In this document: piece after piece, positions 2,037 through 17,832 of the stretch
Layout: every line of letters starts with the position of its first letter
Position numbering within the stretch: the stretch's first letter is position 1
Origin: Acidimicrobiia bacterium
Lineage (GTDB): Bacteria > Actinomycetota > Acidimicrobiia > Spongiisociales > UBA4744
Direction of reading: 5' to 3'
DNA: 64,000 bases
NCBI GenBank assembly: GCA_029863625.1
Contig: JAOTUY010000005.1
Location: forward strand, 1,495-65,494
The notes under the pieces: model-generated
Seen by the model: only the letters and a program-made list of their open reading frames with translations
Told to the model about the DNA's origin: nothing
Database searches by the model: none
Translations under genes and position numbers: made by a program

Positions 2037-4151
2037 TCAGGCTTCCATGACACCTTCCCGGGGCAGCAAAGCAGGAATGATGACCAGCGCCGTCAAAGCA
2101 GCAGTCGTCATCGACACCCACATGATCATCGAGATGTGCGGATGGATACGGAACGGCGACAGCCAGAGCGCGGTGAGCGCGACGGCGATCCCCAGGGCGT
2201 TGGCGATGATCGGTCGGCCGGCCCGGTCGACGGCTCGCAGGACATACCCGTTCCCCTCTCCACGAGCGAAATCGATGGCCGCCACGAAGTGAATGGCGTA
2301 GTCGATGCCGACCCCGATAACGATTGAAGAGATGACGGCCGTCACCAGATTGAGCTGAATGCCTGAAGCCGCGATGAACCCCAACAACATGGCACTGGTG
2401 AGCAACAGCGGCACCAGGCTCACGACGGTTTGGCGCCACTTGCGATAGGCCAAAGCCAGCATCAGGGTCACAAGACCGTAGGCGACGGCCAGGGAGATGA
2501 ACTGGGCTCGCAGGACCAACCGGGCCACTTCATCCCAGATGACGGGCATACCGGTCAGGATCCGGATCTCCTTCTTATCGTCGGCGTAATCGAGCCATCC
2601 CTGCAGATCTACGGTCTCGAAGGCACCCGGCAACAGCATGAACCGGAGTCCGTCCTCTGATGCCATCTGACCGAGCGGCAAGGGTGTTTCCCCGCTAAGT
2701 GCCCCCAGAAGCTGATCATCCGGGACCACCCCTTGTAGATCGGCCAGGCTGAAAATGGTCCGGATACCCGGGAGCTGTTCGAACTCCCTCGAGAGTTCCG
2801 CGACGGGGGCGAGACCGGCTAAGCCGTCAGCCCGATCGTAGGCGTACTCACCGATCAGAGGGGTTGCTCCGCCGAAGAGTTCCGCGGTCTTCTCAAATCC
2901 GAGGCGGACCGGGTCGTCTTTCTTGAAATAGATGAGCTGATCGCCGTCGACCTGCAGTTGCGGGATGAAGACGCCGGAAAAGGCAATCAGGACTCCGGCC
3001 AGAACCGCCGCTACCCACCGCCGCTTGGCCAGCTCTTTGACGGCAGACGTGAGACGGGGGCCGAGCAGCGCCGTGCGGTGCTTCGGTTCGACGTGAATCC
3101 GGCTGAGCAAAGCGGGTAGCGAGAAGAACGAGATGATGCCGGCGAAGACGATTCCGGCCGCTGTGAAGGATCCCAGCTGGGCGATCGGTGCGACGCCGGC
3201 AAATATCAGCGACAGAAACCCGGCGGCGGTGCTGATGGTGGTGAGGATCATCGGAACCCCGACCTGGCGGAGTGTCGACGTGACCCGATCGACTTCATCG
3301 GAGGTGCGGTCGACCTGTTCCTGGTAATGGGTGACGAAATGGAGACCGTCGGCGGAGCCCATCACGATCACGAAGATCGGCACCAGGATGGTGACAATGT
3401 CGACTTCTCGTCCCAGGGCGAAGATGAACCCGAACGTCCACACCGAGCCGAGTAGGGCGGGAAACACCGCGAATATGGTGAGTTTGCGGTCGCCTACGTT
3501 GGCGTAGAAAACGGCCAGTAATAAGAGGACGATGACCGGCGGGATCACAATGAGGAACCAGCTCATCTTGTCGAGCATCGAGGCGAAAATGACTGGATTG
3601 CCCGAGAGGGTCAGCTCCAACCCGTCGGGGGCAGTCACATCGTTCACCGCCTGCGCCACTGCCAGCGAATCGCCGAGCGGAACGACCAGCATCAGCGTGC
3701 TTCGGCCGTCATCACTGACCAGTAGATCGGCCAGGGGATTCTGTCCGAGGAGATCGGTGATTACCTGCTCGGGAACAAGGGCGATCTGGTCCGCCGTCAA
3801 TGGCGCACCGGTGAGCGGGTTGACCTCGGGAATGATCGAACCAACCTGGCCGACACCCTCGATACCGGCCAACGTGTCTCGAAGTTCGCCCACTGCCACC
3901 AGGAGATCCTTCTCGAGCAGGCTGCGACCCTCCGGTGCCGAGACCAGAACGTTGATCGGGTCACCCGTCTCGTACTTCTCCTGCAGGGCGACCCAGGCCT
4001 CACCCGTTTCGTTCCCCTCAGTGATGAACTTGGACACGTCGGCGTTGAACGACATCCGGAACAGCATGGCCAACGAGACGAGGGTGATGATCCCGGTGAT
4101 CGCCAGCACTCGCTTGGAGTGCTCAACAAGGAATCTGGCGATGCGGTCCAT
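2037..4151 (-). CDS. MMPL family (RND superfamily) membrane transporter
   Basis: 704 aa. An N-terminal TM helix (VLAITGIITLVSLAMLF) is followed by a large periplasmic domain and two blocks of about six TM helices (e.g. VIVMGSADGLHFVTHY, GIGVGIDYAIHFV), the classic MMPL/RND layout. Confidence 0.85.
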   Translation of the reverse strand: MDRIARFLVEHSKRVLAITGIITLVSLAMLFRMSFNADVSKFITEGNETGEAWVALQEKYETGDPINVLVSAPEGRSLLEKDLLVAVGELRDTLAGIEGVGQVGSIIPEVNPLTGAPLTADQIALVPEQVITDLLGQNPLADLLVSDDGRSTLMLVVPLGDSLAVAQAVNDVTAPDGLELTLSGNPVIFASMLDKMSWFLIVIPPVIVLLLLAVFYANVGDRKLTIFAVFPALLGSVWTFGFIFALGREVDIVTILVPIFVIVMGSADGLHFVTHYQEQVDRTSDEVDRVTSTLRQVGVPMILTTISTAAGFLSLIFAGVAPIAQLGSFTAAGIVFAGIISFFSLPALLSRIHVEPKHRTALLGPRLTSAVKELAKRRWVAAVLAGVLIAFSGVFIPQLQVDGDQLIYFKKDDPVRLGFEKTAELFGGATPLIGEYAYDRADGLAGLAPVAELSREFEQLPGIRTIFSLADLQGVVPDDQLLGALSGETPLPLGQMASEDGLRFMLLPGAFETVDLQGWLDYADDKKEIRILTGMPVIWDEVARLVLRAQFISLAVAYGLVTLMLALAYRKWRQTVVSLVPLLLTSAMLLGFIAASGIQLNLVTAVISSIVIGVGIDYAIHFVAAIDFARGEGNGYVLRAVDRAGRPIIANALGIAVALTALWLSPFRIHPHISMIMWVSMTTAALTALVIIPALLPREGVMEA

Positions 4152-4386
4152 GGCTTCCTTTCGATGGCCACACTAGATCAACCACTTTGACCATCCCCTC
4201 CAGATGAGCCAGCCAAATCCTGGGACATATGCACGGGCCGGATGGAACAGGACTCGTTATGCAAGAAATCCGCCCTTCGACTTAGAAGGAACCGGTGGCA
4301 TGCACCATCCGAACCGTTATTGTCGCGCTCCCCGGTGCAGGGTGGAGGACTCTCCTTCACTCAATCCGGATTGGAAGAGGTAGGGA

Positions 4387-5670
4387 ATGTCCAGAAGCGG
4401 CTTGCGTCATGAGCGAGTCCTCGACCTGATCGAGACGTCGATGGGACATGGTGTCGAGGCCGGCGTCATCCGCCTCCGCGTCGACGACCAAGCTTCGGCG
4501 GGCGACACCATCACCTTGGGCGGCCGACCCCTGGTCAATTTCGGTTCCTGCGCCTATCTGGGCCTCAATGTCGATCCACGACTGAAGCAGGGAGCTATCG
4601 ATGCGATTCGACGTTTTGGGCCGGTCTTCTCGTCTTCGACCGCCTACACCTCAATAGATCTCTACACATTGCTCGAGGACCGGCTCGCCCAAATGTTTGG
4701 GACGGGGCACATTGTTCTCCCGGCCACTACCACGCTCGGCCACCTTGCGGCCCTCCCTGTTCTCGTTTCGCCGGACGATGTTGTTCTGATCGACACCCAG
4801 TCTCATGCTTCACTACGCCTCGCCACAGATGTCCTGCGGGGAAGGGGAGTGTCTGTCACCGATCTTCCTCACAACGACATGTCTGCGCTGGAGTCAGCCA
4901 TCCAAAAGGCCGAATCCAACCGTGTCTGCCGTATCTGGTATATGGCCGACGGGATCTACTCAATGCATGGGGACGTCGCCCCGGTACACACGATCGCCGA
5001 CCTGCTGGATCGCCACCCGGCTCTGCATGTTTATCTGGATGATGCCCATGGTTTCGGATGGCGCGGGAAACACGGGCGGGGCTATGTGCTCGACAAGACC
5101 CCACTGCATGAGCGCATGGTGATAGTGGTTTCGCTGGCGAAGTCGTTCGGTACCGGGGGCGCCGCGCTTCTGTTCGCAGATCCCGCGACCGCCCGACGGG
5201 TCTGGCTCACCGGCGGCACGCTCACCTTCTCCGGGCCCATCCATCCGGCCGAACTCGGAGCTGCCGTCGCCGCGGCCGAAATCCACCTGTCCGACGAGCA
5301 GGCGGAGCGCCAAACCAAGCTGATCCGCCAAATCGACTTCGTCAGAGATCTGTTGGTCGAGCATCAGCTTCCGGTCGTGTCCCTCGACCCGACCCCAATC
5401 TGGTTCATTCGGGTGGGTCGCCACGACCAAGCGATCAACTTGGCGAAGCGGCTCATGCAGGACGGTTTCTACACCAATACGTCGGCATTTCCGGCCGTGC
5501 CGCGCGGGAAGGGCGGGATTCGCTTCACGCAAACGCTATATCAGACGGATGATCAGATACGCGCGCTCATTAATTCTATGGCCCGACACGTGCCAGAAGT
5601 TGTCGACGAACCGGGAGTAATCGTGGATCTGACCGAAGAAACAGCGCAGCCCGCGGCCAAGAGCGCCTGA
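4387..5670 (+). CDS. PLP-dependent alpha-oxoamine synthase family acyltransferase (8-amino-7-oxononanoate synthase / serine palmitoyltransferase-like)
   Basis: 427 aa with aminotransferase class I/II fold features: GSCAYLGL, a DDAHGFGW-type PLP aspartate region, and SLAKSFGTGGA with the Schiff-base lysine. It is divergent from the MMPL gene. Confidence 0.8.
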   Translation: MSRSGLRHERVLDLIETSMGHGVEAGVIRLRVDDQASAGDTITLGGRPLVNFGSCAYLGLNVDPRLKQGAIDAIRRFGPVFSSSTAYTSIDLYTLLEDRLAQMFGTGHIVLPATTTLGHLAALPVLVSPDDVVLIDTQSHASLRLATDVLRGRGVSVTDLPHNDMSALESAIQKAESNRVCRIWYMADGIYSMHGDVAPVHTIADLLDRHPALHVYLDDAHGFGWRGKHGRGYVLDKTPLHERMVIVVSLAKSFGTGGAALLFADPATARRVWLTGGTLTFSGPIHPAELGAAVAAAEIHLSDEQAERQTKLIRQIDFVRDLLVEHQLPVVSLDPTPIWFIRVGRHDQAINLAKRLMQDGFYTNTSAFPAVPRGKGGIRFTQTLYQTDDQIRALINSMARHVPEVVDEPGVIVDLTEETAQPAAKSA

Positions 5671-5734
5671 AACACCGTCGAGCGCCCGGCAAGACCAACC
5701 CCTTCAGTTCCTGGTCCTGACCTGCCGATATCTG

Positions 5735-7429
5735 TTGCGAATGCAATCGACGGCCCCCCGTTATCGAACCGTTCTCAGGGGCACCGTCCCAACGGGATTC
5801 CGATGGGGCGTCGCTCTTGTTTTGGTGGCGCTCACCCTGGCATGCGCAGCGGTCATAACCATCCCTGCGCAAAAGGACGCGATCGGCCCACCTGGTATGT
5901 TGATCGGAGTGGGGGCCGTAGGCATTCTGCTGGTGCGGTCCTCCCGCCACATGGACGGTCGCGACCGCCGGGCCTGGCGGTTGATCGGAATGGGTTTCCT
6001 GGTAGTTGGGGTTGGCATTCTCACCATTGCGATCCTGGACGTGGCATTCGGCCCGATACCGGCATTTGGACCTCCCGATATCATCGTTATCGCCGGGTAC
6101 GCCCTTGTTCTCGCCGGATTCGGCTCACTGCCCCATCTCAGCACCAGCAAACCACAGCGGGTCCGTATCTACCTCGACAGCGCGATCGGCGCCATCTCAC
6201 TTGCCGTCGTGATGTGGGTGCTGTTTCTCGACGAGCTCATCGCTGCTTTCGCGCAGGCGAATGCGTGGGAAAGGTGGGCAGGATCCATCTACCCGATTCT
6301 CGACGTTGCTGCCTTGATGGTCGTGGTCATCGTGACGGTGCGCCGCAGCAGCTACCGGTTCGACCTTCGGCTCATGTTGTTCGGGGTCGGCATCGTGGTT
6401 CAGTCATTGGCGGATCTGACCCTTTTGAAATCGGGTTTCGGTCAGACCTTCGGCGAGGCCGAACCCAACTACGTCATGTTTCTCCTTGCGGCCCTCGCAT
6501 ACGTGGCCGCTGCCAGCAACGCCAACCGACAGCCAAAACCCCGAGCTTATGCGGATCGCAGGGCTTCCCTGATATCGATGGTGGCGCCCTACTCCGCGGC
6601 GGGGATCTTGGTCATTGTCCTGATAATCGAGATGCAAGCGTCGCAGCTGACGACTAATGCCAGGATCGTTCTCTACGCCACCCTATCCGTCGGAGTTCTG
6701 GTCATCATCAGACAGGGAGTGGCGATTGGCGAAAACCGTCAGCTGGTCGAAAGGCAGCGTGCCGAATTAGTGTCGTCGATCTCCCACGAGTTGCGGACGC
6801 CCCTCACCGCCATTGTCGGGTTCCTCGATGTCATGACCGACGAGGAGGCAGGGATAGATGAAGCGGAGACTCGTGAACTCACCGAAGTCATCCATGAACA
6901 AGCCCGGCACATGTCCCAGATCGTGTCAGATCTAATCCTTCTCGCTCGAGGATCACCCGACGAGTTGACGCTCAAGGAATCCCTGGTCTCGATCGCCGAT
7001 CTGGTCAAGGGCGCCGTGAGATCAGTCGAGCAGAAGACCACATCTCTGACCATCGAAGTTGAAACCCACCTTCAGGGCAGCCTCGATGCCGGTCGAGTTC
7101 AACAGGTCATCGTCAACCTCCTGACCAACGCTGTTCGCTACGGAGGAGACAGAAGCCTGATCGTGGTAAAACGGGAAGGAACCGATCTGGCCATAGAGGT
7201 CCACGACAACGGCCCCGGCGTGCCCAAGAAGTTCGAGTTGGCGATCTGGGAACGCTTCGAGCGGGGGCCGAATCGTTTCAACGCCAGCACTCCCGGATCT
7301 GGTATCGGCCTGGCCGTGGTGGATGCCATCACAAGGGCACACCACGGCAGCACCGCCTATCGGCAATCGGAACGCCTGGGTGGCGCCTGCTTCCGGGTGG
7401 TACTGCCCAACCGAGTCAAAGCGGCCTAA
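5735..7429 (+). CDS. membrane sensor histidine kinase
   Basis: The N-terminal roughly 330 aa carry many TM helices. They are followed by an HisKA H-box (SHELRTPLTAIVGF) and HATPase_c N/G boxes (NLLTNAVRYGG, GSGIGLAVV). Confidence 0.85.
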   Translation: MRMQSTAPRYRTVLRGTVPTGFRWGVALVLVALTLACAAVITIPAQKDAIGPPGMLIGVGAVGILLVRSSRHMDGRDRRAWRLIGMGFLVVGVGILTIAILDVAFGPIPAFGPPDIIVIAGYALVLAGFGSLPHLSTSKPQRVRIYLDSAIGAISLAVVMWVLFLDELIAAFAQANAWERWAGSIYPILDVAALMVVVIVTVRRSSYRFDLRLMLFGVGIVVQSLADLTLLKSGFGQTFGEAEPNYVMFLLAALAYVAAASNANRQPKPRAYADRRASLISMVAPYSAAGILVIVLIIEMQASQLTTNARIVLYATLSVGVLVIIRQGVAIGENRQLVERQRAELVSSISHELRTPLTAIVGFLDVMTDEEAGIDEAETRELTEVIHEQARHMSQIVSDLILLARGSPDELTLKESLVSIADLVKGAVRSVEQKTTSLTIEVETHLQGSLDAGRVQQVIVNLLTNAVRYGGDRSLIVVKREGTDLAIEVHDNGPGVPKKFELAIWERFERGPNRFNASTPGSGIGLAVVDAITRAHHGSTAYRQSERLGGACFRVVLPNRVKAA

Positions 7430-7592
7430 GCAGTTCCTCGTTTCTTGTTTCTCGTTCCCGGTTCGTGGTGTTCTCTCGGCCACCAGGGGGCAAGCGGCCT
7501 GGAAGGGCTGACTTTCTTACGTCTTCCCTCGGCGTCAGCCGGTGGAGCTGGTCGGTTCGAAGAGAGTCGAGCCTGAGGGGCAAAAGACCCGC

Positions 7593-7976
7593 CTACGCCA
7601 CCCCGACTAGATCGGTCACCGCTCTGCGAAAACTGTCGACGTCGAAAGGCTTGGTTAGGTAACCGTTCGCCCCGGACAATCGAGCCCTCTGTTGCGTCTC
7701 GGCGTCGTCGCGAGCCGTGACGATCAGCACCGGTACCATAGCGGTCCGGGGTTCGGCTCTCAGCCGGCCCAGAATCGCCCAGCCGTCCACCCCGGGAAGG
7801 GCGAGATCCAACACCACGAGATCGAAATCCTGGGTGGCGATCGCCTTGAGGGCCGCGGACCCGGTGGTGCAGATGACCGGCTCGAAGCCGGACCCATCCA
7901 GGGTGCGCTCCTCAACCCTCGACGTCGCTTCGGTGTCCTCTACGACCAGGACTTTGCGTTTCACGGTTTTGATCAT
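7593..7976 (-). CDS. single-domain response regulator (CheY-like receiver)
   Basis: 127 aa: KVLVVEDTE...DLVVLDLALPGVDGW...VLIVTA...TKPF. It has the receiver Asp pocket and a conserved Lys, and no output domain. Confidence 0.85.
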   Translation of the reverse strand: MIKTVKRKVLVVEDTEATSRVEERTLDGSGFEPVICTTGSAALKAIATQDFDLVVLDLALPGVDGWAILGRLRAEPRTAMVPVLIVTARDDAETQQRARLSGANGYLTKPFDVDSFRRAVTDLVGVA

Positions 7977-8026
7977 ATGAACCTCGGCGGTTTCACACCA
8001 GGAAGAAGGCGAACCTCCCCCTCTTT

Positions 8027-11000
8027 ATGTCGACCACCCCGCTGCAGATCTTGAATTGTTTCGACCATTTGTCGGGAACTGCTCGCAATTCGCCCGGCCG
8101 TAACACCACCGAATTCAATAGACTGCGATGGTCGGAAATCGACCTACCGGGGGGTGTCGTGGCCGTAGGGGTGGAAGAGAATGTCGACGCGAGCACTGAC
8201 CTCTATCAGTACTACTTGCCGCGCCTGGTTCAGCAGTGGGACACCGACGCTCCTTCGTCTACCCATCGTCAGATCGATGGGACCATGGTCTTTGTCGACA
8301 TTTCAGGTTTCACGGCGATGTCGGAACGCCTGGCCAGGTTCGGGAAGGTCGGGGCTGAAGAGGTCACCGAAGTCCTGGGGGAATGCTTCAAGGGCTTGCT
8401 AGCGGTTGCGTACCCGCTGGGCGGCCGGCTCATCAAGTTCGGGGGCGATGCCCTCCTATTGCTCTTCGACGGCCCCCTGCACGAACGCCGCGCCGTGAAC
8501 GCAGCGGTGGGAATGCAGCATGCCATACGCACACTGGGCAAGGTCAAGACTTCGGCCGGGAACATGACGTTGCGCATGTCGATCGGTGCTCACTCCGGAG
8601 CGTTCCACTTCTTTCTCGTCGGTGACTCGCATCGAGAGTTGATCCTGACCGGCCCCGCCGCCACCGAAACGGTCAAAATGGAGGGGGCCGCCGAGGCAAC
8701 CGAGATCGTCATATCGAAGGCCACGGCATCCGTTCTTCCCAAGGCGGCCGTCGGCCGGCCGAAGGAACCTGGTTTCCTCGTCCGGGCGGCCGTTCCAGAC
8801 GTTGATGAGGGCACCGTCGACGTCCGCCCCCCGCCCGGCAATCTCGAGCAATACATTCCGGTGGCCGTGCGAGAATCGATCCTGGCAGGAGCCAACGAAC
8901 CCGAACACCGCCAGGTCACCGTTGCGTTTCTGCACTTCATGGGGGTAGATGACCTTCTTTCGGAGCAGGGCCCTGCAGCAGTCAGCCGGGCGCTGTCGGA
9001 ACTGATCGGTCAGGTTCAGAAGGCCATCGATCCGCGCGGTGTGGCCTTCCTCGCCACAGACGTCTACGACGACGGGGGGAAGATCATCCTCGCCGCCGGT
9101 GCCCCGACCGCCACCGGGAACGACTCGGAACGCATGCTGCTGGCATTGCGGGAGATGGTCGGTCAAGACCACGAATTGCCAATCAGGATCGGCGTCAACC
9201 GCGGCCACGTTTTCTCCGGTGACGTAGGCCCCGCCTACCGGCGGACGTACACCATCATGGGCGACGACGTGAACCTGGCCGCCCGTCTCATGTCGGCCGC
9301 CTCGCCGGGAGAGATCTACGCGACACCCGTCGTAGTCGATGGCTCCCGAACCCTGTTTGCCACCCGGGCGCTGGAGCCATTCTCGGTCAAGGGCAAAGCC
9401 GAACCGGTCCAGGCGTTCGAAGTTGGAGAAGAGACCGGGACCCGTTCGACCAGGACCAGGGAAGAACTCCCATTCACGGGCCGCAACGAAGAGCTCACCA
9501 GGCTGACCGACGCTTTGGAGGATGCCCGGCTCGGTTCGGGCGGTGTCTTCGCCATTGTTGGCGACCGGGGCATCGGTAAGACCCGGTTGCTCCAGGAGGC
9601 AGTAGCTCTGGAATCGGACGTACCGGCCGTCACGGTCCGAGCCGAGCCCTACGGCACCGCCTCTCCGTACCGGCCGTTCCGGGACCCCATTCGAGACCTT
9701 CTGGGCGTTGAAGGCGGCGAGCAACAGAAAATGGTCCGTCAACTGGCCAAAGCGGTAGGTCGCCTCGACAAAGAACTTCTTCCCTTCCTGCCGCTGATCG
9801 GTGATGTGACCCATGTGGACGTCGACTCAACCCCCGAGGTCCAAGACATCGACCCTCAGTTCCGTCGGGATCGGCTGGCCGGCGTCGTGATCCGGATTCT
9901 GGAACTCGCCAAACCGGGCCCGCTGGCCGTGATCCTGGAAGAAGGCCAGTGGATGGACGAGGCCTCCACCGAGCTTGCCCAACGGCTGAGCCGGGCGACC
10001 GCCGATCATTCCTGGCTGGTCATGACGACCAGGATCGGTAGCGAGGGCGGCTTCGAACCCGAAGACACCCCGATCATCACCCTTGGTCCCCTCGAGTCGC
10101 AGGACGCATTGTCCATCGTCGTGGCTGCGACCGACGAGAGCCCGCTCCGCCCTCACGACATCGATGCGATCGTGCAGCGAGCCGGCGGCAACCCGCTCTT
10201 CCTCGAAGAGATCCTCACGGTGGTGAGACAGACCGAGTCCGTAGCGGACCTCCCCGATTCACTTGACGCGTTGGTGAGCGCCCAGATCGACGCCCTCGCC
10301 CCGCTGCCAAAACAATTGCTCCGCTACGCCAGCGTGCTCGGTCGCAGCTTCCGTCTGACGGTACTGAACGAGGTGCTGCGCGACGACCCGCTGGAGCTCG
10401 ATTCGAGTGCCCAGGACTCCCTCGTCGGGTTCCTCGAGTCCGAGGGCGGCGACCGTATGCAATTTCGGCACGGGCTCATCCGCGACGTGGCCTACGAGGG
10501 TCTTTCGTACCGCCGTCGCCGTGAACTGCACGCAAAGGCTGCCCATGCGACCGAACGACTGGCCGGCGACGACCCCGACTCGGTCGCCGACCTCCTTGCT
10601 CTTCACTACTCGCTGGCCCAGGAATACCAGCCAACCTGGCACTACGCCCGCATCGCCGGCGACGATGCTCGTGAGGCCTACGCCAACGTTGATGCAGCCA
10701 CCCAATATGAGCGAGCCCTCGAGGCAGCCGGGCGTTTGCGGACAGTTAGCGCTCGGGAGAAGGCGGGGGTCTGGGAAGCCCTTGGCGACGTGCGCGAACG
10801 AGTCGGTCTTTACGATGGCGCAGTCGACGCCTATCGGCGAGCAGTCCGACTCCGTGCCGATGACCCTATCGCTAGAGCTAACCTGCTCCTCAAGCGAGCC
10901 CGGGCCCGGATGCGATCCAGTGCCTACGCCGTCGCGCTCGGCGACACGACCCGTGGTCTGCGCTCCTTGGAGAACCTCGACGGCCACGAAGCAGCCAAGG

Positions 11001-11989
11001 CCCGAGCCGGGATGATTTCGTTCAAGGCCGCCATCCGAATGACACAGGACCGACCGCGAGAAGCTCTCGCCAACGCCCAAGAAGCAGCAGACCTGGCCAG
11101 TCTGACCGGGGAGGACGAAGCGCTGGCCCGCGCCTACGGAATTCTTGACTGGGCCCACCTGGCACTCGGAGAACCCCAGAAGGCCGTGCACGGAACAGAA
11201 TCCTTAGAGATCTCGCTGCGGATCGGCGATCTGGCTCAGGCTGCGTTCATTATGAACAACCTGGGCGGCATGGCCTATTTCGACGGTCGCTGGGACGAGG
11301 CGGTGACGTGGTATGCAAAAAGCCGGGAGGCCTTCCGGCGGGCCGGTAACGATGTGGGAGCGGCCTTCGCGGGCGCCAACACCGGCGAAGTGCTGGTGAG
11401 CCAGTACAGGTTCGACGAAGCTGAACCTGTACTGAGAGAGGCAATCCGCGTCTTGCGCGCCTCCGGTTCGGCGAAAGAAGCCACGTTCGCCGAGACCCAG
11501 CTGGCAAGGTTGCTCACGGAGCGAGGCGAGCACGATGAGGCCCACAACATGCTCAGGCGCATCCACGCTGAGGCAGAGGCGCTCGGCCAGACGATTATCA
11601 CCCTGGAGGCTGCGCTTTATCTCGCCCGCCTGCGGGTCCTCCAGGGCGATCCCGGCGGAGCTCTCGGTGTCCTCGAAAGCGCCGAGGAGGCGGCCGGAGC
11701 CGACGCTGTCCTCCTTGCGTCGGCGCTTGCTCGGACGCGTGCCTCTGCCCTGATCGCAATCGGGAGAATCGCTGAGGCAAGAGGAGTCGTTGAGGGTGGA
11801 TTGGCCGAAGCTCGCCGGCAGGGCCTGGACTACGAGGAAGCCTTGCTACTCCGTCTGGCAACCGATGTCGCCCGTTCGGCCGGCCAGAATGCCGAGCCAA
11901 ATCGCACGAACGAAGCCGAGGCGCTCTTCGAGCGCCTCGGCATTCGCTATCCGTTGAGTGATGATTCAGAGGCTCCGTCGCCTACCTGA
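8027..11989 (+). CDS. multidomain signalling protein with two class III adenylate/guanylate cyclase homology domains, a STAND/AAA ATPase and a TPR-like region
   Basis: The first cyclase domain reads GTMVFVDISGFTAMSE...FGGDALLLLF. The second reads VTVAFLHFMG...IRIGVNRGHVFSGDVG...YTIMGDDVNLAARL. A Walker A follows (FAIVGDRGIGKTRLL) after the sequence FTGRNEELTRL, typical of mycobacterial cyclase/LuxR-family ATPases. The long C-terminus is alpha-helical and repeat-rich, and no LuxR HTH is visible at the end. Confidence 0.85.
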   Translation: MSTTPLQILNCFDHLSGTARNSPGRNTTEFNRLRWSEIDLPGGVVAVGVEENVDASTDLYQYYLPRLVQQWDTDAPSSTHRQIDGTMVFVDISGFTAMSERLARFGKVGAEEVTEVLGECFKGLLAVAYPLGGRLIKFGGDALLLLFDGPLHERRAVNAAVGMQHAIRTLGKVKTSAGNMTLRMSIGAHSGAFHFFLVGDSHRELILTGPAATETVKMEGAAEATEIVISKATASVLPKAAVGRPKEPGFLVRAAVPDVDEGTVDVRPPPGNLEQYIPVAVRESILAGANEPEHRQVTVAFLHFMGVDDLLSEQGPAAVSRALSELIGQVQKAIDPRGVAFLATDVYDDGGKIILAAGAPTATGNDSERMLLALREMVGQDHELPIRIGVNRGHVFSGDVGPAYRRTYTIMGDDVNLAARLMSAASPGEIYATPVVVDGSRTLFATRALEPFSVKGKAEPVQAFEVGEETGTRSTRTREELPFTGRNEELTRLTDALEDARLGSGGVFAIVGDRGIGKTRLLQEAVALESDVPAVTVRAEPYGTASPYRPFRDPIRDLLGVEGGEQQKMVRQLAKAVGRLDKELLPFLPLIGDVTHVDVDSTPEVQDIDPQFRRDRLAGVVIRILELAKPGPLAVILEEGQWMDEASTELAQRLSRATADHSWLVMTTRIGSEGGFEPEDTPIITLGPLESQDALSIVVAATDESPLRPHDIDAIVQRAGGNPLFLEEILTVVRQTESVADLPDSLDALVSAQIDALAPLPKQLLRYASVLGRSFRLTVLNEVLRDDPLELDSSAQDSLVGFLESEGGDRMQFRHGLIRDVAYEGLSYRRRRELHAKAAHATERLAGDDPDSVADLLALHYSLAQEYQPTWHYARIAGDDAREAYANVDAATQYERALEAAGRLRTVSAREKAGVWEALGDVRERVGLYDGAVDAYRRAVRLRADDPIARANLLLKRARARMRSSAYAVALGDTTRGLRSLENLDGHEAAKARAGMISFKAAIRMTQDRPREALANAQEAADLASLTGEDEALARAYGILDWAHLALGEPQKAVHGTESLEISLRIGDLAQAAFIMNNLGGMAYFDGRWDEAVTWYAKSREAFRRAGNDVGAAFAGANTGEVLVSQYRFDEAEPVLREAIRVLRASGSAKEATFAETQLARLLTERGEHDEAHNMLRRIHAEAEALGQTIITLEAALYLARLRVLQGDPGGALGVLESAEEAAGADAVLLASALARTRASALIAIGRIAEARGVVEGGLAEARRQGLDYEEALLLRLATDVARSAGQNAEPNRTNEAEALFERLGIRYPLSDDSEAPSPT

Positions 11990-13466
11990 TGCCGAACACC
12001 GGGTCGTCGTTCCCGAAGGAACCGTAGACGTCGATCACCGAGCCGGCGCCCAGGCTGGTTGTGTTGATAGCAGCCAGACACCAGGTGGCCTGAACCAGGT
12101 CGGTGTCAATGACCCCAACCAGGCTCGGGAACAGGTCATCGCCAACACCCGGATCCGGACCTGCCAGCTCGGGGAACAAGCCCTCTTCTATCGCGGCAGC
12201 AGGCCGCAGATTGCAGGCCTGCATGTCCACCAGCGGAGCCGGTCCGTCCAGATCACGATCGTATTGGAGGATCGGCTGCGGGTCACTCGGGCTTCGACTG
12301 TCGAAGACAATGTCACCCCGGTAGTTGGCGGTGATATCGGGACTGAACGGATCAAACGAAACGAACAACGTTGTCGCGTCCATGGTGTAGGGCTTTGGTG
12401 GTCCCGAACATCCAGCGGCAACATCATCGTTACTCGTGAAGATCCTCTTGATGAACGAGGTGAAGCCCGCCTCATTTGTGGCTTCGGCAGTATCACCGCA
12501 GTCCAGTTCACCGTCGTAAACGATCACATCCCTGACCACTCGTATCGCATCATTTCCGGAAGTGTCGGATGCCTCGTAAGTGATTGTGTAGTTACCAGCT
12601 GTAGTCACCAAGCCACCGTCCACGGGGACCGTGGAAGTCCCATAGACGATGTCGTCAGGATCGAAGTTATCTCTGAAGTCGGCACCTGGATCGATGAATT
12701 CATCGCCGACAATGAAGATCAGGGGATTGCCTCCAATCAGAGAAAGCACCGGGGCTTCGCTGTCGGTGGCCATTGTGAAGTACGTGTCATACCCTGCCCC
12801 GGGGTCGTCCAGCAACGAAACTGACCCATCGGCTGGAGAAGAGACGCTGATTTCGACGGCATCGAAAAGGTAGCTTTCACCAACAGCCGGCAGCTCGAAC
12901 AGATGCCGGTCGTCGCCCGAGTCGGGCCCACAATCACTGCCTAAGCACGCGAACGTTGCAGGCGTCCCAATCTCAGATCCATCCTTGAAGGCCTGGATCT
13001 CGCCGGTCGCCCCGAACTTCAGTTTGATCCCGAACTGGGCCTGGTCGGCATACCAATGGCCGATGATGAGACCGGCCAACTCAATCCTGAGGATCTCACC
13101 GCGGTCCAACTGCGTGCCGTTGATCCTCGCACAGGGTGTCCCATTGCCCTCACCCTGGGCTAACACGCCCAGAATGTGGTCTTTGAGGCCTGGTCCAGGG
13201 TTATTACGGTTGGCCTCGGCCGAAAGTTCGACAAGTAGGTGGCCGCTCGGATCAGGATCATTGACGCGACAACCCGACCTACTCAGAGCCTGCGTATAGT
13301 CCGGTGACCCCCCAGCCGGACCCAGCGTGAACTTGTCGCCGTCAGTGTCGTTCATCACGAGGTCGAGTCTTTGACCTGGGACTCCTCCCGAAGCTATCGA
13401 GGCCGTCACCAGCAACGCTCCGACCATGCCGACCACGAGCGCAAGAATCGTCAACTTGCGTTTCAT
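11982..13466 (-). CDS. secreted protein with Ig-like (DUF5011-type) domain
   Basis: The signal peptide is MKRKLTILALVVGMVGALLVTASIASG (start taken at this Met, not the upstream Met of the long ORF). The internal segment PVLSLIGGNPLIFIVGDEFIDPGADFRDN...TAGNYTITYEASDTSGNDAIRVVRDVIV matches the DUF5011/Ig-like pattern. It is convergent with the cyclase gene, overlapping it by 8 nt. Confidence 0.7.
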   Translation of the reverse strand: MKRKLTILALVVGMVGALLVTASIASGGVPGQRLDLVMNDTDGDKFTLGPAGGSPDYTQALSRSGCRVNDPDPSGHLLVELSAEANRNNPGPGLKDHILGVLAQGEGNGTPCARINGTQLDRGEILRIELAGLIIGHWYADQAQFGIKLKFGATGEIQAFKDGSEIGTPATFACLGSDCGPDSGDDRHLFELPAVGESYLFDAVEISVSSPADGSVSLLDDPGAGYDTYFTMATDSEAPVLSLIGGNPLIFIVGDEFIDPGADFRDNFDPDDIVYGTSTVPVDGGLVTTAGNYTITYEASDTSGNDAIRVVRDVIVYDGELDCGDTAEATNEAGFTSFIKRIFTSNDDVAAGCSGPPKPYTMDATTLFVSFDPFSPDITANYRGDIVFDSRSPSDPQPILQYDRDLDGPAPLVDMQACNLRPAAAIEEGLFPELAGPDPGVGDDLFPSLVGVIDTDLVQATWCLAAINTTSLGAGSVIDVYGSFGNDDPVFGIR

Positions 13467-13739
13467 ACCAACCGACCTCCCTTTGGCGGCGCAATACAGC
13501 ACCGTTGTATCAGTTCAGGGTCGAGGAGGCACAATAGACGCCCGGACCCACCGTCCGGGTATCCGTAACGTCGTTCCACGCCTCCCACCGCGATGAACCC
13601 AATCCCCTTCGTTACGTACCGAACCCTACGATGTCACAAGTAGTGAGATTCGTAAAGGGATTCTTTCCGACACCAGGTTGTGAACTCTGATCAAAAGGGA
13701 CTCGATCTGCCCCTCTTGATTGGCGCTACCCGCGTCCCG

Positions 13740-14579
13740 CTAATCGACACAGGTCGTCAAACCGACCCGCCCGGGCACAAGCTCGAACTCGAGATCGTGA
13801 CTCTCGGACATCTCCGCCATAGCTCGATCCAGCATCTCATCCGAATGCCCGGGGTCATGGTGAAACGTGACCAGCTGTTTCACACTTGCCAGCGCGGCAA
13901 ACGCCAGCGCGTGATCGAACGTGCTGTGGCCCCACCCGACCCGACTCTTGTACTCATCGTCGGTGTACTGAGCGTCATGGATCAACACATCGACTCCGTG
14001 AGCCAGCTCAAAACCCGAGGTCCAGTCCGGTACATCGGGGAACTCCGCCACCCCCAGGGCCGGCTCGTGATCGGGCAGATAGGCAAGGACACACTCCGGG
14101 GATTCGATCCGATATCCCATCGTAGGTCCGGGGTGGGTGATGAGCTCGGCGCGCACGGTAAGGCTTCCCAGGGCGAACGAGGCCGGCGGACGGATCTCGT
14201 GCAGCGTGACGTCGGGGAGGTCGCGCAGCATGACCGGGAACAACGGCGGGGACAGATACCGGGTCAGCCGTTCGCGCAGACCAAGCGTCGTCGAACCCGG
14301 ACCCCATACGTGGACTTCGATCTCGGGGTCAAACAGCGGGGAGAAAAACCCAAGACCCTGGATGTGGTCCATGTGGAGGTGGGTGAGGAGGATGTCGACT
14401 CGTTTAGTCCCACTCGGCGTCTGCTCGCCGATCGGCCGGATCCCCGAACCGGCGTCGAGCACGACGAATTCACCGGCCGGACCTCGCAACTCAACGGCAG
14501 CCGTGTCGCCGCCGTACTGAACCGTGTCCGGCCCACCGCTGGCCAACGATCCCCGCGTTCCCCACAGGGTGACCTTCAC
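13740..14579 (-). CDS. MBL-fold metallo-hydrolase
   Basis: 279 aa with the HxHxDH motif (LTHLHMDHIQGLGFF), downstream His/Asp ligands (VLIHDAQY, GWGHST) and C-terminal HHDPGHSDE. Its start overlaps the stop of the upstream PAS gene as ATGA. Confidence 0.8.
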   Translation of the reverse strand: MKVTLWGTRGSLASGGPDTVQYGGDTAAVELRGPAGEFVVLDAGSGIRPIGEQTPSGTKRVDILLTHLHMDHIQGLGFFSPLFDPEIEVHVWGPGSTTLGLRERLTRYLSPPLFPVMLRDLPDVTLHEIRPPASFALGSLTVRAELITHPGPTMGYRIESPECVLAYLPDHEPALGVAEFPDVPDWTSGFELAHGVDVLIHDAQYTDDEYKSRVGWGHSTFDHALAFAALASVKQLVTFHHDPGHSDEMLDRAMAEMSESHDLEFELVPGRVGLTTCVD

Positions 14580-15172
14580 GAGTCGTGCGTCTCCCAGAAC
14601 ATGGCCACGGCGCCGAGGTGGCGGCCTCCCTGGCCTTCAACCGGAAAGGCGGTGATCGCCAGAATCCGCCACACCCCGTCGAGGCCCCTCACTCGCACCG
14701 TGTCGTGACTGGGCACCCGCCCGACCAAGGCGACAACGATTGGCAGCTCAGCATTCGGATAGGGCTTCCCATCAAGCCTGGTCGTATGGAAGTGCTCGGC
14801 GAGCTGATCGGCATTAATCTCACCCGCCTCCTCGAAGCGGACCCCGAGCAACGCCTCCGCCGGTTCGTTGTAGTAGAGGAGATTCCCAGAATCGTCGATC
14901 AGCCAGACGGGGAGAGCGAGGTAGGAGGCCCACTGCTTGAGGAGGATGAGCTCGATCGGCTGTTGGGCCATGTGCCTCCCGTTCGGATTCAGTTTTCCAT
15001 CATGACGCAAAACGGGTATGTCTGCACGAAGTTCTTCGGAACCTGTTGCGACCAAAAAGTCGGGGTCAGAGGTTGAGCCGTCCAGCCCGCCCTCCTCCAT
15101 TACTTGAACAGCCTGACGGTAGCCGGCGTCGATCAGCCCGAACGCCGAGAGCAGCCCGACATGGTCGACCAA
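14576..15172 (-). CDS. stand-alone PAS-like sensor domain protein
   Basis: 198 aa. The segment LPVWLIDDSGNLLYYNEPAEALLGVRFEEAGEI...PIVVALVGRVPSHDTVRVRGLDGVWRILAITAFPV has PAS-fold spacing. There are no TM segments or output domain. It is operonic between the two MBL genes. Confidence 0.6.
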   Translation of the reverse strand: MVDHVGLLSAFGLIDAGYRQAVQVMEEGGLDGSTSDPDFLVATGSEELRADIPVLRHDGKLNPNGRHMAQQPIELILLKQWASYLALPVWLIDDSGNLLYYNEPAEALLGVRFEEAGEINADQLAEHFHTTRLDGKPYPNAELPIVVALVGRVPSHDTVRVRGLDGVWRILAITAFPVEGQGGRHLGAVAMFWETHDS

Positions 15173-15236
15173 AGGGTGTTCACCATTCCCCTATGTGCCG
15201 CCGGCAAAATCTGGGAACGACGGGTGAGGGTGTCGT

Positions 15237-16067
15237 TCAGAACTCGATCTGCATGCCCTCGAAGGCCCCGTCGGTGGCGGGGAACTTCTCACGTGCCAAA
15301 GCGACGATTGCGTCGATTTCATCATCCGAGCGATGCGGATCGTGACTGACCAGAACCAGTCTTTTGACCCGTGATTCGAGAGCCGCCGCAACGGCATGGT
15401 GCCGCGTGCTGTGGCCCCATCCAACGTAGAGGCTGGGGTACTCATCGGGTGTGTATTGCGCATCGTGGATGAGAACATCCACGCCTGCGGCGAAGGTCCT
15501 CAGCGTCTCATCGGAGGCCGGGTCGCCTCGTTCGTAATCGGTGGCCAGGACAATCGTGTTGGCACCGTTGGAAATACGGTAGGCGGTAACGCCCTGCGGG
15601 TGATGGAGCGTCGCCGGGTCGATCGTCAGCCGCCCGACCCGGAAGGGCGATCCCGCCAGGTCGACGTACTCCTTGCCGGCCGCCGTCTCGAAGATGGAAA
15701 CCGGGAACCAGGGCGGTCGGAGAGCACCCTCCACGGCTTCCCTCACGCCCATACCTTCCCAGCTGTGCCCGTAGAAGGTGAACCGGTTTCGCTCATCGAA
15801 GAGGGGCGGGAAGAAGAGAATGCCCTGCAGATGATCCCAGTGGTAGTGGGTGAGGAAAACATGGAAGTCGATACCGTCCGGAGGGATAACCAGATCTTGA
15901 GCCAGGGTGGTGATCCCGGTTCCACCGTCGATGATCAGTCTCTGTCTGGTGCCAAGGTCGATGTCGATGCTGAGGGTATGACCACCGTATCTCTCGGTGG
16001 TCGGTCCCGACACGGGCATGGACCCCCGGACACCTCGAAACGTGAGGGTGACTGGTTGGTCGGCCAT
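15237..16067 (-). CDS. MBL-fold metallo-hydrolase (paralog of 13740-14579)
   Basis: 276 aa with HxHxDH (LTHYHWDHLQGILFF), VLIHDAQYT, GWGHST and SHDPHRSDDE. It has the same architecture as the downstream MBL gene and clearly similar sequence. Confidence 0.8.
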   Translation of the reverse strand: MADQPVTLTFRGVRGSMPVSGPTTERYGGHTLSIDIDLGTRQRLIIDGGTGITTLAQDLVIPPDGIDFHVFLTHYHWDHLQGILFFPPLFDERNRFTFYGHSWEGMGVREAVEGALRPPWFPVSIFETAAGKEYVDLAGSPFRVGRLTIDPATLHHPQGVTAYRISNGANTIVLATDYERGDPASDETLRTFAAGVDVLIHDAQYTPDEYPSLYVGWGHSTRHHAVAAALESRVKRLVLVSHDPHRSDDEIDAIVALAREKFPATDGAFEGMQIEF

Positions 16068-16165
16068 GGTGACATGTCCCTGTGTGGACTGCGATGCGAC
16101 ACCCTATCCGGTATCGACGCTTGCGTGCATGAATTCTTCTCCGACATGTCGCCGGAACGGCCGGT

Positions 16166-17413
16166 ATGCTCGTCCACCGAACCAACGTTCAGGGAGGGGA
16201 GGGCTCATCGGTGAAGGTCACCGCTATTCGACCACCCCGGTTGCGTACCACCGAGACCGAAGCAGAGCGCAAGGTCACCTGGACCGAGCTTTTCTACGAC
16301 CTGGTTTTCGTCGTGGCTGTTTCCGGTTTGGGCGCTCGACTCCTCGACGATCCGACGATACGAGGAGCGGCCGCTTTCACCGGCCTGTTTGTCCCGTTGT
16401 GGTGGGCCTGGGCCGGGTTCACCTTCTACGCCGATCGCTACGACACCGACGATCTGGGCCAGCGAATCCTGGCCGTTGCCCAGATGGTCACCATCGCCCT
16501 GATGGCCGCCAGCATCTCGGGAGACGAAACCCAGTCGCTCATCGGGTTCGCGCTCGCCTATGTCGGAGCCCGGTTGATTCTCATCGTCATGTACCTGCGG
16601 GCCCGCCGCCACGTCCCGGAAACCCGCCAATTAGTCGGCGGCTACGTGCGCGGCATGTCGATAGCGGTCGCCTTCTGGCTGGTTTCTATCTTTATCCCGG
16701 AGCCGTTCCGGTATTTCCTCTGGGCTATTGGACTGCTCATCGACGGCTACACCCCCTACCGCCTCAGGCGCATCCAGGCCAAAGTGCCCCTCGATGTCGC
16801 CCATCTCCCTGAGAGGTTCGGGCTGTTCACCATCCTGGTGCTCGGCGAGTCCATCGCCGCCACTGTGGCGGGGCTGGGCCACGAAGGCTGGAACGCCGGA
16901 CCGGTCGTGACCGCCGTACTGGCCGTGGTGGTAGCCGCCGGCTTGTGGTGGGTCTACTTCGACAACCTCGATGGAACCGTCGTGCGCCGTCGGGCAAATC
17001 AGAAGACCGCCTGGAAACCCACGACGTGGATCTACGGCCACCTGCCCCTGGCCATCGGCTTGATGGCCACCGCCATCGGCTTGGAAGGGGCAGTCATTGG
17101 CGCCGGCGGGCACGACTGGCCGGCCAATGAAAGGTGGTTGCTCGTCGCCGGGGTAGGCGGAGCGCTGATCGGGATCGGCATCATAGAAGTCGCCACCGAG
17201 CGTCGGGACAATGCCGTGTCCCGACTCAAGGCACAGTGGCGGGTCGTCGGAGGAGTCATCGCGGCCGTCATCGGCCTCCTAGGAGGCCTCACCGGACCAC
17301 TCGTCACCATGGCACTTCTCGCTCTGCTCTGCGCAGCTCAGGTCGGCGGAGACGTCTGGCTCAACCAGCGGGAAGCCGCCAATGCCGGAGGCGTAGACAT
17401 TCAGGACGGCTGA
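16166..17413 (+). CDS. LtrA (low temperature requirement A) family membrane protein
   Basis: The N-terminal VTWTELFYDLVFVVAVS matches the hallmark LtrA/DUF1211 motif (ELFFDLVFVFAI), followed by multiple TM helices. The true start may be downstream of the annotated Met (for example the in-frame GTG at VKVTA). Confidence 0.75.
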   Translation: MLVHRTNVQGGEGSSVKVTAIRPPRLRTTETEAERKVTWTELFYDLVFVVAVSGLGARLLDDPTIRGAAAFTGLFVPLWWAWAGFTFYADRYDTDDLGQRILAVAQMVTIALMAASISGDETQSLIGFALAYVGARLILIVMYLRARRHVPETRQLVGGYVRGMSIAVAFWLVSIFIPEPFRYFLWAIGLLIDGYTPYRLRRIQAKVPLDVAHLPERFGLFTILVLGESIAATVAGLGHEGWNAGPVVTAVLAVVVAAGLWWVYFDNLDGTVVRRRANQKTAWKPTTWIYGHLPLAIGLMATAIGLEGAVIGAGGHDWPANERWLLVAGVGGALIGIGIIEVATERRDNAVSRLKAQWRVVGGVIAAVIGLLGGLTGPLVTMALLALLCAAQVGGDVWLNQREAANAGGVDIQDG

Positions 17414-17832
17414 TCGCCGCCCGCACCGCGTCGGGCCTGGGATTTCTCGACCAGCGCAATCACTTCGCGCCGCAAGCGATCAACATCGTATGGTTTGGCC
17501 AGGAACGCGTCCGGTTTGGTCACGGTCGAAAGCCGTTGCGACTCCGCCCCCTCGTAGGCGGTGACCACGAGCACGGGAAGATCCGAGGTCCGGGGGTCTT
17601 CCCGCAGGCGAGCCAGCACGTCCCACCCATGCATTTTCGGGAGCCGGATATCGAGCACCGCGGCATCAAAGGACTGGGTGTTGGCAGCCTCGAGGGCGCT
17701 CGGTCCGTCCTCGCAAGCAACAACCTCGAACCCCACCCGCTCGAGGCTCAACACCAGTAAACGGCGCGGAACCACTTCGTCCTCGACGACCAAAACCTTG
17801 CCACGACTCGTTTGGTGTTCCGCCACGTTCAT
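17401..17832 (-). CDS. single-domain response regulator (CheY-like receiver), paralog of 7593-7976
   Basis: KVLVVEDEVV...DAAVLDIRLPKMHGW...PVLVVTA...AKPYD. It is clearly alignable with the receiver at 7593-7976 and is convergent with the LtrA gene, overlapping it by 13 nt. Confidence 0.85.
   Translation of the reverse strand: MNVAEHQTSRGKVLVVEDEVVPRRLLVLSLERVGFEVVACEDGPSALEAANTQSFDAAVLDIRLPKMHGWDVLARLREDPRTSDLPVLVVTAYEGAESQRLSTVTKPDAFLAKPYDVDRLRREVIALVEKSQARRGAGGDQPS

Follow-up and report, generated by a model that had tools for sequence, protein, structure and literature searches.

The 64,000-nt stretch analysed here (the window) comes from an Acidimicrobiia bacterium (contig JAOTUY010000005.1 of assembly GCA_029863625.1), and its region 5735-17832 is probably a lineage-specific composite built around a recurrent core that makes, reads and breaks a cyclic nucleotide. 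At the centre of this core stands a cytoplasmic enzyme resembling the mammalian soluble adenylyl cyclase (sAC). It would produce a cyclic nucleotide, most likely cAMP, with its STAND/TPR part acting as a putative ligand-operated switch that gates the fused cyclase. Proteins with a domain binding cyclic nucleotide monophosphates (cNMPs), encoded beside a third of the family members and including a phospholipase in the window lineage, would read the product, and phosphodiesterase-like proteins of the metallo-β-lactamase (MBL) fold, directly beside a fifth of the family members, would hydrolyse it. A secreted β-protein encoded convergently with the cyclase would be its dedicated partner, and a sensor kinase with the receiver RR1, as well as an LtrA-family protein with the receiver RR2, would be mere neighbours within the window lineage.

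Judged by its sequence, the giant protein of the region is a bacterial version of the sAC architecture, with tandem cyclase domains (C1 and C2) followed by a STAND ATPase and TPR repeats. PF00211 matches it in two stretches (97 bits against a cut-off of 21.9), AAA_16 scores 73.8 bits, above its cut-off, TPR_12 and TPR_MalT follow downstream of AAA_16, and a hydropathy scan of the protein predicted no membrane segment. An initial annotation, made from the sequence alone, had described a 1320-aa protein with two cyclase domains, a STAND ATPase and a TPR region. Its domains are borne out by Pfam and its length is probably 1276 aa: the first ~44 residues of the 1320-aa open reading frame (ORF) are unmatched in 13 orthologues, the consensus N-terminus of which, 'MAVxV...DTST..YQ.YLPRLV', corresponds to the GTG at 8159, and it is because of this agreement that the start is placed there. 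The family is very large (5754 matches at E <= 1e-10, typical length about 1260 aa); JGI uses the name 'class 3 adenylate cyclase/TPR repeat protein' and NCBI calls the window protein an 'AAA family ATPase'. Tandem pairs of cyclase paralogues are found in two of the genome loci considered below (designated by L and a number), at 6059-13822 of L002 and 279-8199 of L057. The two L002 copies are only ~37% identical to each other, so the family appears to grow by old duplications.

The best solved-structure match of the N-terminal 422 residues is human ADCY10 (86.7 bits, E 1.3e-23; runner-up 64 bits), with C1 and C2 aligning in order with ADCY10 residues 38-192 and 288-453. An alignment of the window cyclase with the 13 orthologues (14 sequences; residues numbered as on the window ORF) shows how the catalytic residues are distributed. 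Within 'FVDISGFT' and 'KFGGDAL', C1 keeps both metal-binding Asp, D91 and D141, which align with sAC D47 and D99, together with K137, the equivalent of sAC Lys95. In C2, His and Lys replace the two metal-binding Asp and 'YTIMGDDVNLAARLM' is retained; its T409, N416 and R420 align with sAC T405, N412 and R416, N416 and R420 being the transition-state pair. All of these C1 and C2 residues (D91, K137, D141, T409, N416, R420) are invariant in the 14 sequences. Thr at the position of T409 is a marker of class IIIb adenylyl cyclases. The complete class III catalytic set (two Asp, Asn and Arg) is present and divided between both cyclase domains, and therefore one active site should form inside a single chain, with C1 and C2 complementary as they are in mammalian sAC. 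As for the sAC bicarbonate-site pair, the Lys95 equivalent K137 is invariant; at the position of Arg176 the window protein has Lys and the orthologue consensus Glu. Farther along the chain, G512, G515, G517 and K518 of the Walker A motif 'GIGKT' and D644, A646 and S647 of the 'WMDEAS' segment in the STAND region do not vary among the 14 sequences.

The surroundings of the cyclase were compared across 80 genome loci whose family members share 42-63% identity with the window protein. Acidimicrobiia and Actinomycetes supplied most of them; some are bins labelled Acidobacteriota or Gammaproteobacteria, and two (L045 and L060) are from the cultured strains Agromyces luteolus JCM 11431 and A. bracchium JCM 11433 and gave no MBL match. 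The window proteins were compared with all loci, flanking ORFs were clustered and flanks were searched with small hidden Markov models; a denominator of 68 counts the loci with enough sequence (for the secreted partner, at least 1.3 kb downstream). By this comparison no neighbour accompanies the cyclase family as constantly as the secreted protein does. When counted as convergent and within 400 bp downstream of the cyclase, its family is directly downstream, in every case on the opposite strand, in 43 of the 68 loci; three further loci that were mis-measured extend the range to 43-46. The 3′ ends of both genes overlap or are usually <60 bp apart (an 8-bp overlap in the window), and elsewhere in the flanks the family occurs only as a tandem second copy in L066 and as a weak match 1.4 kb downstream in L030.

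Members of this secreted family are all-beta proteins that have a signal or anchor helix; of their four widely conserved cysteines three are invariant, and they evolve fast (~20-31% identity across loci). They have no Pfam family: the Pfam match of the window copy falls only on an inserted Ig-like domain of ~80 residues, which is all that distinguishes this copy. An AlphaFold2 model (mean pLDDT 75) predicts an adhesin-like beta-sandwich; Foldseek returned only weak, low-TM adhesin matches to it, so that no function can be assigned to the protein. A word-indexed protein search with the window copy yielded 15 relatives, and the two that were looked up (L171 and L172) both lie in the window-type arrangement.

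An MBL of the family to which the two window hydrolases (MBL1 and MBL2) belong is found directly upstream of the cyclase in 14 of the 68 loci, and nowhere else in the flanks of those loci was an MBL match obtained. The gap is typically ~100-150 bp, with outliers of 18 bp (L028) and ~1.1 kb (L050). These 14 loci represent six lineages, between which cyclase identity does not exceed 48%. MBL and cyclase are transcribed divergently in an Actinomycetes lineage (L037 and eight others) and in L017, and share a strand in L023/L024, L028 and L050. In L050, a Microthrixaceae bin, the cyclase-adjacent MBL forms one protein with a receiver-like segment and a GAF domain (7582-9891, + strand), and this fusion stands ~110 bp upstream of the cyclase family member. 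The same locus also holds two cNMP_binding-patatin-like ORFs and two small cNMP_binding ORFs downstream. MBL2 is 51% identical to the MBL that ends 18 bp before the L028 cyclase match, and in other loci the nearest relatives of MBL2 immediately precede a cyclase gene in the same orientation. It is the MBL2 type and the MBLs of the Actinomycetes lineage that are tied to cyclases.

ORFs with a cNMP_binding domain flank the cyclase in 26 of the 80 loci. There are 34 in all, 25 of them within 2.1 kb of the cyclase; their products are either proteins of 145-190 aa that stand alone or fusions of cNMP_binding with patatin. Receivers and kinase cores, counted over the same ~1 Mb as an internal control, number only 1 and 9. 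Through the MBL and cNMP_binding neighbours, the tie between the cyclase and genes of cyclic-nucleotide turnover or sensing that the initial annotation had proposed for the window reaches far outside the window lineage and recurs in distant bacteria. Gene order is fixed in one Actinomycetes lineage (L056, L062, L072, L076, L079 and L082; ~7.5-15.3 kb each, Ornithinibacter bins included): cNMP_binding protein, a 242-aa protein, MBL, cyclase and secreted partner. The sequence of the 242-aa protein resembles, by eye, a calcineurin-type metallophosphoesterase, and this would place two different candidate phosphodiesterases beside one cyclase.

Pfam was run on every gene of the region, and all nine genes listed in the initial annotation were found at or near the coordinates that it gave. 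The features are as follows, together with a relic described below.

5735-7429, + strand: polytopic sensor histidine kinase, with ~8-10 membrane segments in the first 330 aa (hydropathy) followed by HisKA and HATPase_c (Pfam)
7593-7976, − strand: receiver RR1, Pfam Response_reg only, 82 bits
8159-11989, + strand (longest ORF from 8027): sAC-like cyclase, with two Guanylate_cyc stretches, AAA_16, TPR_12 and TPR_MalT
11982-13466, − strand (ORF 11982-13502): secreted or membrane-anchored all-beta protein, with Bact_surface_Ig-like and an N-terminal hydrophobic segment
13740-14579, − strand: MBL1, candidate phosphodiesterase, Pfam Lactamase_B_2, 73 bits
14576-14971, − strand: PAS-like protein of 131 aa, PAS_9 25.4 bits
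15080-15178, − strand: relic, the last ~36 codons of a deleted cNMP_binding/NTE_Ploop/patatin gene (tblastn, DNA alignment)
15237-16067, − strand: MBL2, paralogue of MBL1, Pfam Lactamase_B_2, 59 bits
16166-17413, + strand: LtrA-family polytopic membrane protein, Pfam LtrA PF06772, 290.6 bits against a cut-off of 31.9, 353 of 356 model positions
17401-17832, − strand: receiver RR2, Pfam Response_reg only, 77 bits

Each of the earlier gene calls is therefore backed by Pfam, where the Guanylate_cyc, AAA_16, TPR, Lactamase_B_2 and LtrA models were all matched and the PAS call is sub-threshold. The kinase was correctly described as being without a cognate DNA-binding regulator, since no DNA-binding response regulator occurs in the region, and the proposed paralogy is seen both for the two receivers (47% identity over 122 aa) and for the two MBL-fold hydrolases (35% identity over 263 aa).

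The gene order of the window is shared by its relatives L002, L171 and L172 (cyclases 72-85% identical) and by L087. The whole order, as read in L171, is LiaF, PspC, FabH, receiver, LtrA, MBL2, cNMP_binding/NTE_Ploop/patatin, PAS, MBL1, secreted protein, cyclase, receiver, kinase, aminotransferase and MMPL. In all four of these, out of five close relatives with sequence over this stretch, PAS and MBL2 are separated by a gene for a cNMP-binding patatin-like phospholipase. The contig of L172 ends within this gene, so that its N-terminal part is missing and only the NTE_Ploop and patatin parts are visible. The corresponding PAS-MBL2 interval of the window measures 265 bp and holds a 99-bp remnant (15080-15178, − strand), in which 23 of 36 residues are identical to residues 574-609 of the L002 patatin protein (tblastn, E 8e-7). 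DNA alignment with L002 and L087 shows the 3′ end of the patatin gene retained in the window along with conserved sequence upstream of the PAS gene. By these alignments only the last ~110 bp of the patatin gene are left, and the local reader has been deleted.

The deletion also explains the 198-aa 'PAS' ORF, which runs into the relic of the deleted gene, the real gene being the 131-aa one at 14576-14971. The triad of a PAS protein between two MBLs, noted earlier, is present with all three of its genes; it derives by deletion from the order MBL2, cNMP-binding patatin, PAS, MBL1. Given that the local reader was deleted and that no other cNMP-binding ORF was found anywhere in the 64-kb window, the cluster is without a cNMP receptor, and the initial description of a 'self-contained' module does not apply. 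With growing distance the order decays: L003 keeps AOS, kinase, cyclase and an unannotated 452-aa opposite-strand gene just downstream, L004 keeps only the cyclase and the convergent gene, and L006 keeps nothing. In L171, a long-read assembly, LtrA, cyclase and kinase are each split into two or more called genes (3345-4546 and 10527-16014), which may be frameshift assembly errors or real pseudogenes.

PAS and MBL1 are an autonomous sensor-hydrolase unit that is only sometimes near a cyclase. The stop of the PAS gene overlaps the start of MBL1 by 4 bp, hence we treat the two as one conserved bicistronic unit; the PAS_9 score of 25.4 bits is just below the cut-off of 27, and the PAS matches of orthologues are weak or faint. 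The pair is also present in L002, L017 and L087-L090. MBL1-type proteins gave >8000 matches, and the best 120 listed are 60-83% identical. On four long contigs a PAS-like gene of 131-134 aa precedes the MBL with a 4-bp overlap, and three of the four have no cyclase within 8 kb. Among 80 MBL1-type metagenome loci, the PAS-like gene is seen in 61, always just upstream of the MBL, and in most of those without it the MBL is near the contig start. LtrA adjoins MBL1 in L107 and L110. This autonomy speaks against reading the whole cluster as one module, as had been suggested, and so do the kinase and receivers, which are mostly confined to close relatives. Strong conservation is also seen upstream of the PAS-like gene start (window 14972-15060, − strand; L002 16537-16620; L087 7540-7608), where the three genomes read 'GAAGAAC..GCGTGCA....TTTTGCGTCATGATGGAAAAC' and the adjoining patatin coding sequence has diverged or been deleted. 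The conserved sequence may be a promoter or operator of the PAS-MBL1 operon.

In cyclase-linked MBLs the metal ligands H67, H69, D71, H72, H149, D170, H218 and H241 are invariant. Both window MBLs match the motif [T/S]HxHxDH (as THLHMDH and THYHWDH), which defines the 'atypical class II' phosphodiesterases Rv1339, YhfI and CpdA (PMC9293780). This motif is also found in RNase Z and PhnP relatives, and so it does not discriminate. All 11 cyclase-linked MBLs tested match the NCBIfam phosphodiesterase model NF041851 weakly, and the PhnP model score of the MBLs is below their RNase Z and NF041851 scores. A PDB profile search with MBL1 returned RNase Z with E 3e-22 in two separate stretches, as well as ElaC1, BA1088 and PhnP; YhfI (PDB 6KNS) aligns over the full length of MBL1 (E 3.7e-11), and Apyc1 (7u2s, E 7e-4) and yeast PDE1 are marginal. 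The Pfam Apyc1 model is matched by one of the 11 cyclase-linked MBLs (E 0.009). At 276-279 aa the window MBLs are shorter than RNase Z models and chains (302-320 aa), and the AlphaFold2 model of MBL1 (mean pLDDT 89) gives Foldseek TM-scores of 0.6-0.78 to all the protein types returned by the PDB search. Cyclase-linked MBLs form a separate clade with N-terminal GxRGS and RYGG motifs of its own.

Sequence and model comparisons suggest that the family sits in the phosphodiesterase branch of the MBL superfamily (RNase Z/YhfI/PhnP), and homology does not fix its substrate. The MBLs are candidate cyclic-nucleotide phosphodiesterases on grounds of gene context, not of homology. The earlier proposal that they hydrolyse cyclic nucleotides therefore gains from the repeated cyclase adjacency and the GAF fusion, and loses from a sequence and fold that fall among RNase Z, ElaC, YhfI and PhnP with no curated cut-off reached.

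The two-component genes and LtrA behave differently from this core. The kinase was counted with the cyclase in five loci; a full-length orthologue is found beside the cyclase only in L002, L003 and L031, with gene fragments in L171; the kinase adjoins RR1 in L002 and L171, and no receiver stands beside it in L003 or L031. RR1 is transcribed divergently from the cyclase, and reading its sequence reveals the acidic pair, the phospho-acceptor Asp in 'VLDLALPG', the Thr and the Lys. Its orthologues occur only in L002 (76% identical), L171 and L172. The 3′ end of RR2 overlaps that of LtrA by 13 bp, and an RR2 orthologue is found only together with LtrA, in L087 and L171. In five loci (L017, L027, L036, L041 and L081), three of them related Acidobacteriota-labelled bins, LtrA adjoins the cyclase or is close to it, and the distant loci all lack the LtrA-receiver pair.

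The receivers show no link to control of the cyclase/STAND protein, a role for which they had been put forward, and neither receivers nor kinases are enriched in cyclase flanks. The kinase, likewise counted at first as a part of the cyclase module, is a lineage-level neighbour. Phospho-control of the cyclase by the kinase or the receivers is speculation. An aminotransferase similar to BioF/serine palmitoyltransferase travels with the kinase (window 2037-7429, L002 1-5018, L003 6875-9911, L171 15550-19632), joined in the closest relatives by an MMPL transporter, which hints at a place for the kinase in a lipid or envelope unit and not with the cyclase. A 54%-identical aminotransferase is found ~6 kb from a distant cyclase (L049, 11131-12321).

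The MMPL transporter and the aminotransferase make up one flank of the region, and a FabH-like synthase and PspC/LiaF genes make up the other. Just past the region, PspC-domain, LiaF-like and small LiaI/LiaF-TM genes (window 19609-20930) form an apparent envelope-stress operon, which occupies the same position in L087 and L171. Rfam and tRNA scans gave no match inside the region; farther along the window there are a TPP riboswitch upstream of the ORF 22444-23538 (22316-22403, + strand; 55.4 bits, barely over the gathering score) and tRNA-Asp(GTC) and tRNA-Phe(GAA) genes (27939-28127, + strand).

Several observations weigh against the cyclic-nucleotide core proposed here. Opposite K334, the Lys of sAC that contacts adenine, the window protein has Asp349, in a stretch where the alignment is unreliable, and the substrate is therefore not assigned from sequence. 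In the window, 1.7 and 3.2 kb separate the two MBLs from the cyclase, so that neither adjoins it. With the RNase Z model TIGR02651 they score 65.9 (MBL1) and 51.6 bits (MBL2) against a cut-off of 293, with NF041851 they score 50.5 and 45.3 bits against a cut-off of 400, and for MBL1 the fold matches and the PDB profile search fail to separate an RNase Z-like from a YhfI-like protein. A cyclase domain is present in only four of the 80 MBL1-type metagenome loci. The secreted protein is extracellular and the cyclase cytoplasmic, and since their genes are convergent they cannot be an operon. Moreover, kinship among several of the loci that carry an MBL or LtrA means that independent events are fewer than the locus counts.

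Part of this would be expected if there were no functional module at all and the region were an order inherited within one Acidimicrobiia lineage, with AOS-kinase-RR1, cyclase, PAS-MBL1, MBL2 and LtrA-RR2 being independent and the other adjacencies stemming from the many paralogues. The full MMPL-to-LiaF order is indeed limited to the close relatives L002, L087, L171 and L172 and decays quickly with distance (L003, L004, L006), PAS-MBL1 occurs in unrelated contexts, and cyclase paralogues are numerous, with 5754 matches and tandem copies in L002 and L057. Chance, however, cannot give an MBL within ~150 bp of the cyclase start in 14 of 68 loci across six lineages and in both orientations; the convergent secreted family accompanies about two thirds of the loci, from Acidimicrobiia and Actinomycetes to Acidobacteriota- and Gammaproteobacteria-labelled bins, and 34 cNMP_binding ORFs against 1 receiver are likewise beyond chance. 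Inherited gene order explains the lineage-specific part and not the recurrent, position-specific adjacencies, and we find it doubtful as an account of the whole. A milder departure would leave the cyclase part standing and have the MBLs act on some other phosphodiester (RNA 3′ ends, 2′,3′-cyclic phosphates, or a phosphonate or lipid head-group intermediate), with PAS sensing an unrelated cue. RNase Z, ElaC1 and PhnP are the best sequence matches of the MBLs, their homologues are entered in databases as 'phosphoribosyl 1,2-cyclic phosphodiesterase' or as 'ribonuclease BN', and PAS-MBL1 is mostly without a nearby cyclase or cNMP-binding gene. Yet the RNase Z and PhnP cut-offs are not reached, RNase Z aligns with these 276-279 aa proteins only in two separate stretches, and it is YhfI, of the atypical class II phosphodiesterase group, that aligns over the full length. 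The tight, repeated cyclase adjacency, the GAF fusion and the co-location with cNMP-binding and metallophosphoesterase-like genes in the Actinomycetes lineage argue in the same direction. Such an alternative substrate is conceivable, particularly for MBL1, though we lean against it.

A role in anti-phage defence of the Pycsar/Avs kind, in which the STAND/TPR part would sense a phage protein, the cyclic nucleotide would activate a killing patatin and the MBL would reset or buffer the signal like Apyc1, seems very improbable. Avs-type sensors combine STAND and TPR, as does the window protein. Its cyclase domains match PADLOC PycC models at the domain level (best E 8e-13), MBL2 orthologues match Pfam Anti-Pycsar_Apyc1 weakly, the secreted partner evolves fast, and relatives carry a cNMP-binding patatin effector, the gene for which was lost in the window. 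PADLOC, however, recognised no system: the MBLs, the kinase and the remaining partners apart from the receivers went unmatched, the receivers gave weak domain-level matches, and the cyclase gave PycC and TPR ones at that level. The family is very large and keeps a stable position between genomes among housekeeping genes (MMPL, FabH, PspC/LiaF), no sign of a mobile element or defence island was seen in the region, the window holds no effector, and the stand-alone cNMP-binding neighbours of 145-190 aa have no recognised killing domain. Both the catalytic pattern and the best-matching solved structure point to sAC, which is an adenylyl cyclase of the housekeeping type.

Returning to the cyclic-nucleotide core, a bolder version of it would regard the sAC-like STAND cyclases as a conserved and so far undescribed system with a dedicated surface protein, a new MBL clade of cNMP phosphodiesterases and cNMP-binding effectors, where the surface partner or its ligand would be the STAND/TPR input. 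We put this forward tentatively and would not expect all of it to hold. If true, the surface partner, or something captured or released by it, would be the long-sought STAND/TPR input, the MBLs would be a third widespread clade of bacterial cNMP phosphodiesterases beyond the CpdA/Rv0805 and Rv1339 types, and this clade would help to fill the missing-phosphodiesterase gap in Actinomycetota. A large bacterial family that has the sAC architecture and a small recurrent partner set offers a tractable route to what STAND/TPR senses. For annotation, the comparison separates genes truly linked to the cyclase (secreted partner, MBL, cNMP-binding) from its neighbours (kinase, receivers).

The cyclase architecture, stand-alone receivers and MBL-type phosphodiesterases are all of known kinds. 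As to the architecture of the window cyclase, sAC proteins that carry a P-loop NTPase region have already been recorded in bacteria (PMC6660944, with reference to Roelofs & Van Haastert 2002 and to Kobayashi et al. 2004). The literature searched yielded no description of a partner set for bacterial sAC-like proteins, that is, of conserved neighbours such as the secreted protein, MBL and cNMP-binding genes, nor of the secreted family, of the MBL clade as a candidate phosphodiesterase or of the effector deletion; the eLife 2020 paper on conflict systems does not cover the cyclase-STAND-TPR architecture.

Among known systems, orphan two-component systems with CheY-like receivers resemble the window in the combination of a HisKA/HATPase_c kinase and two canonical receivers without output; unlike them, the window has no chemotaxis or phosphorelay context, and the association with a cyclase is confined to its lineage. 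Actinobacteria have cNMP-binding NTE/patatin-like phospholipases, for example of the M. tuberculosis Rv2565 type, and the same cNMP_binding, NTE_Ploop and patatin architecture is found in the relatives' gene of which the window keeps ~36 codons. In Dictyostelium, MBL-type phosphodiesterases carry cNMP-binding domains, and this pairing or fusion of an MBL with cNMP sensing resembles the MBL-GAF fusion of L050. With the atypical class II phosphodiesterases (Rv1339, YhfI and C. glutamicum CpdA) the window MBLs share the PF12706 fold, the [T/S]HxHxDH motif and closeness to RNase Z, and YhfI and MBL1 superpose with a TM-score of about 0.68-0.77; they differ in scoring 45-50 bits against the cut-off of 400 and in forming their own GxRGS/RYGG clade. 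Apyc1, the anti-Pycsar phosphodiesterase, is also an MBL-fold hydrolase of cyclic mononucleotides, and the similarity of the window-family MBLs to it is very weak.

For the cyclase itself, the closest actinobacterial parallels are seen in M. tuberculosis Rv0386, Rv1358 and Rv2488c, which have one cyclase domain, a STAND-type ATPase (AAA_16), helical repeats and a LuxR-type HTH end. They are alike in joining an actinobacterial class III cyclase to an AAA_16/STAND-type ATPase and helical repeats, whereas the window protein has two complementary cyclase domains and no HTH. A P-loop STAND domain is also predicted in full-length mammalian sAC, and its regulator has stayed elusive despite the recent purification of the protein (PMC12802110). 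The window protein departs from mammalian sAC at the Arg176 equivalent (Lys in the window, Glu in most orthologues) and at the Lys334 position (Asp), no haem domain was detected in it, and the likeness of the C-terminal part, past the residues 1-470 covered by solved structures of human sAC, is one of domain architecture only. Shared with mammalian sAC (ADCY10/sACfl), on the other hand, are the tandem C1-C2 arrangement, with Asp metal ligands only in C1 and Asn, Arg and Thr only in C2, the conserved Lys95 equivalent, a P-loop/STAND region after the cyclase domains, and ADCY10 as the best structure match for both domains.

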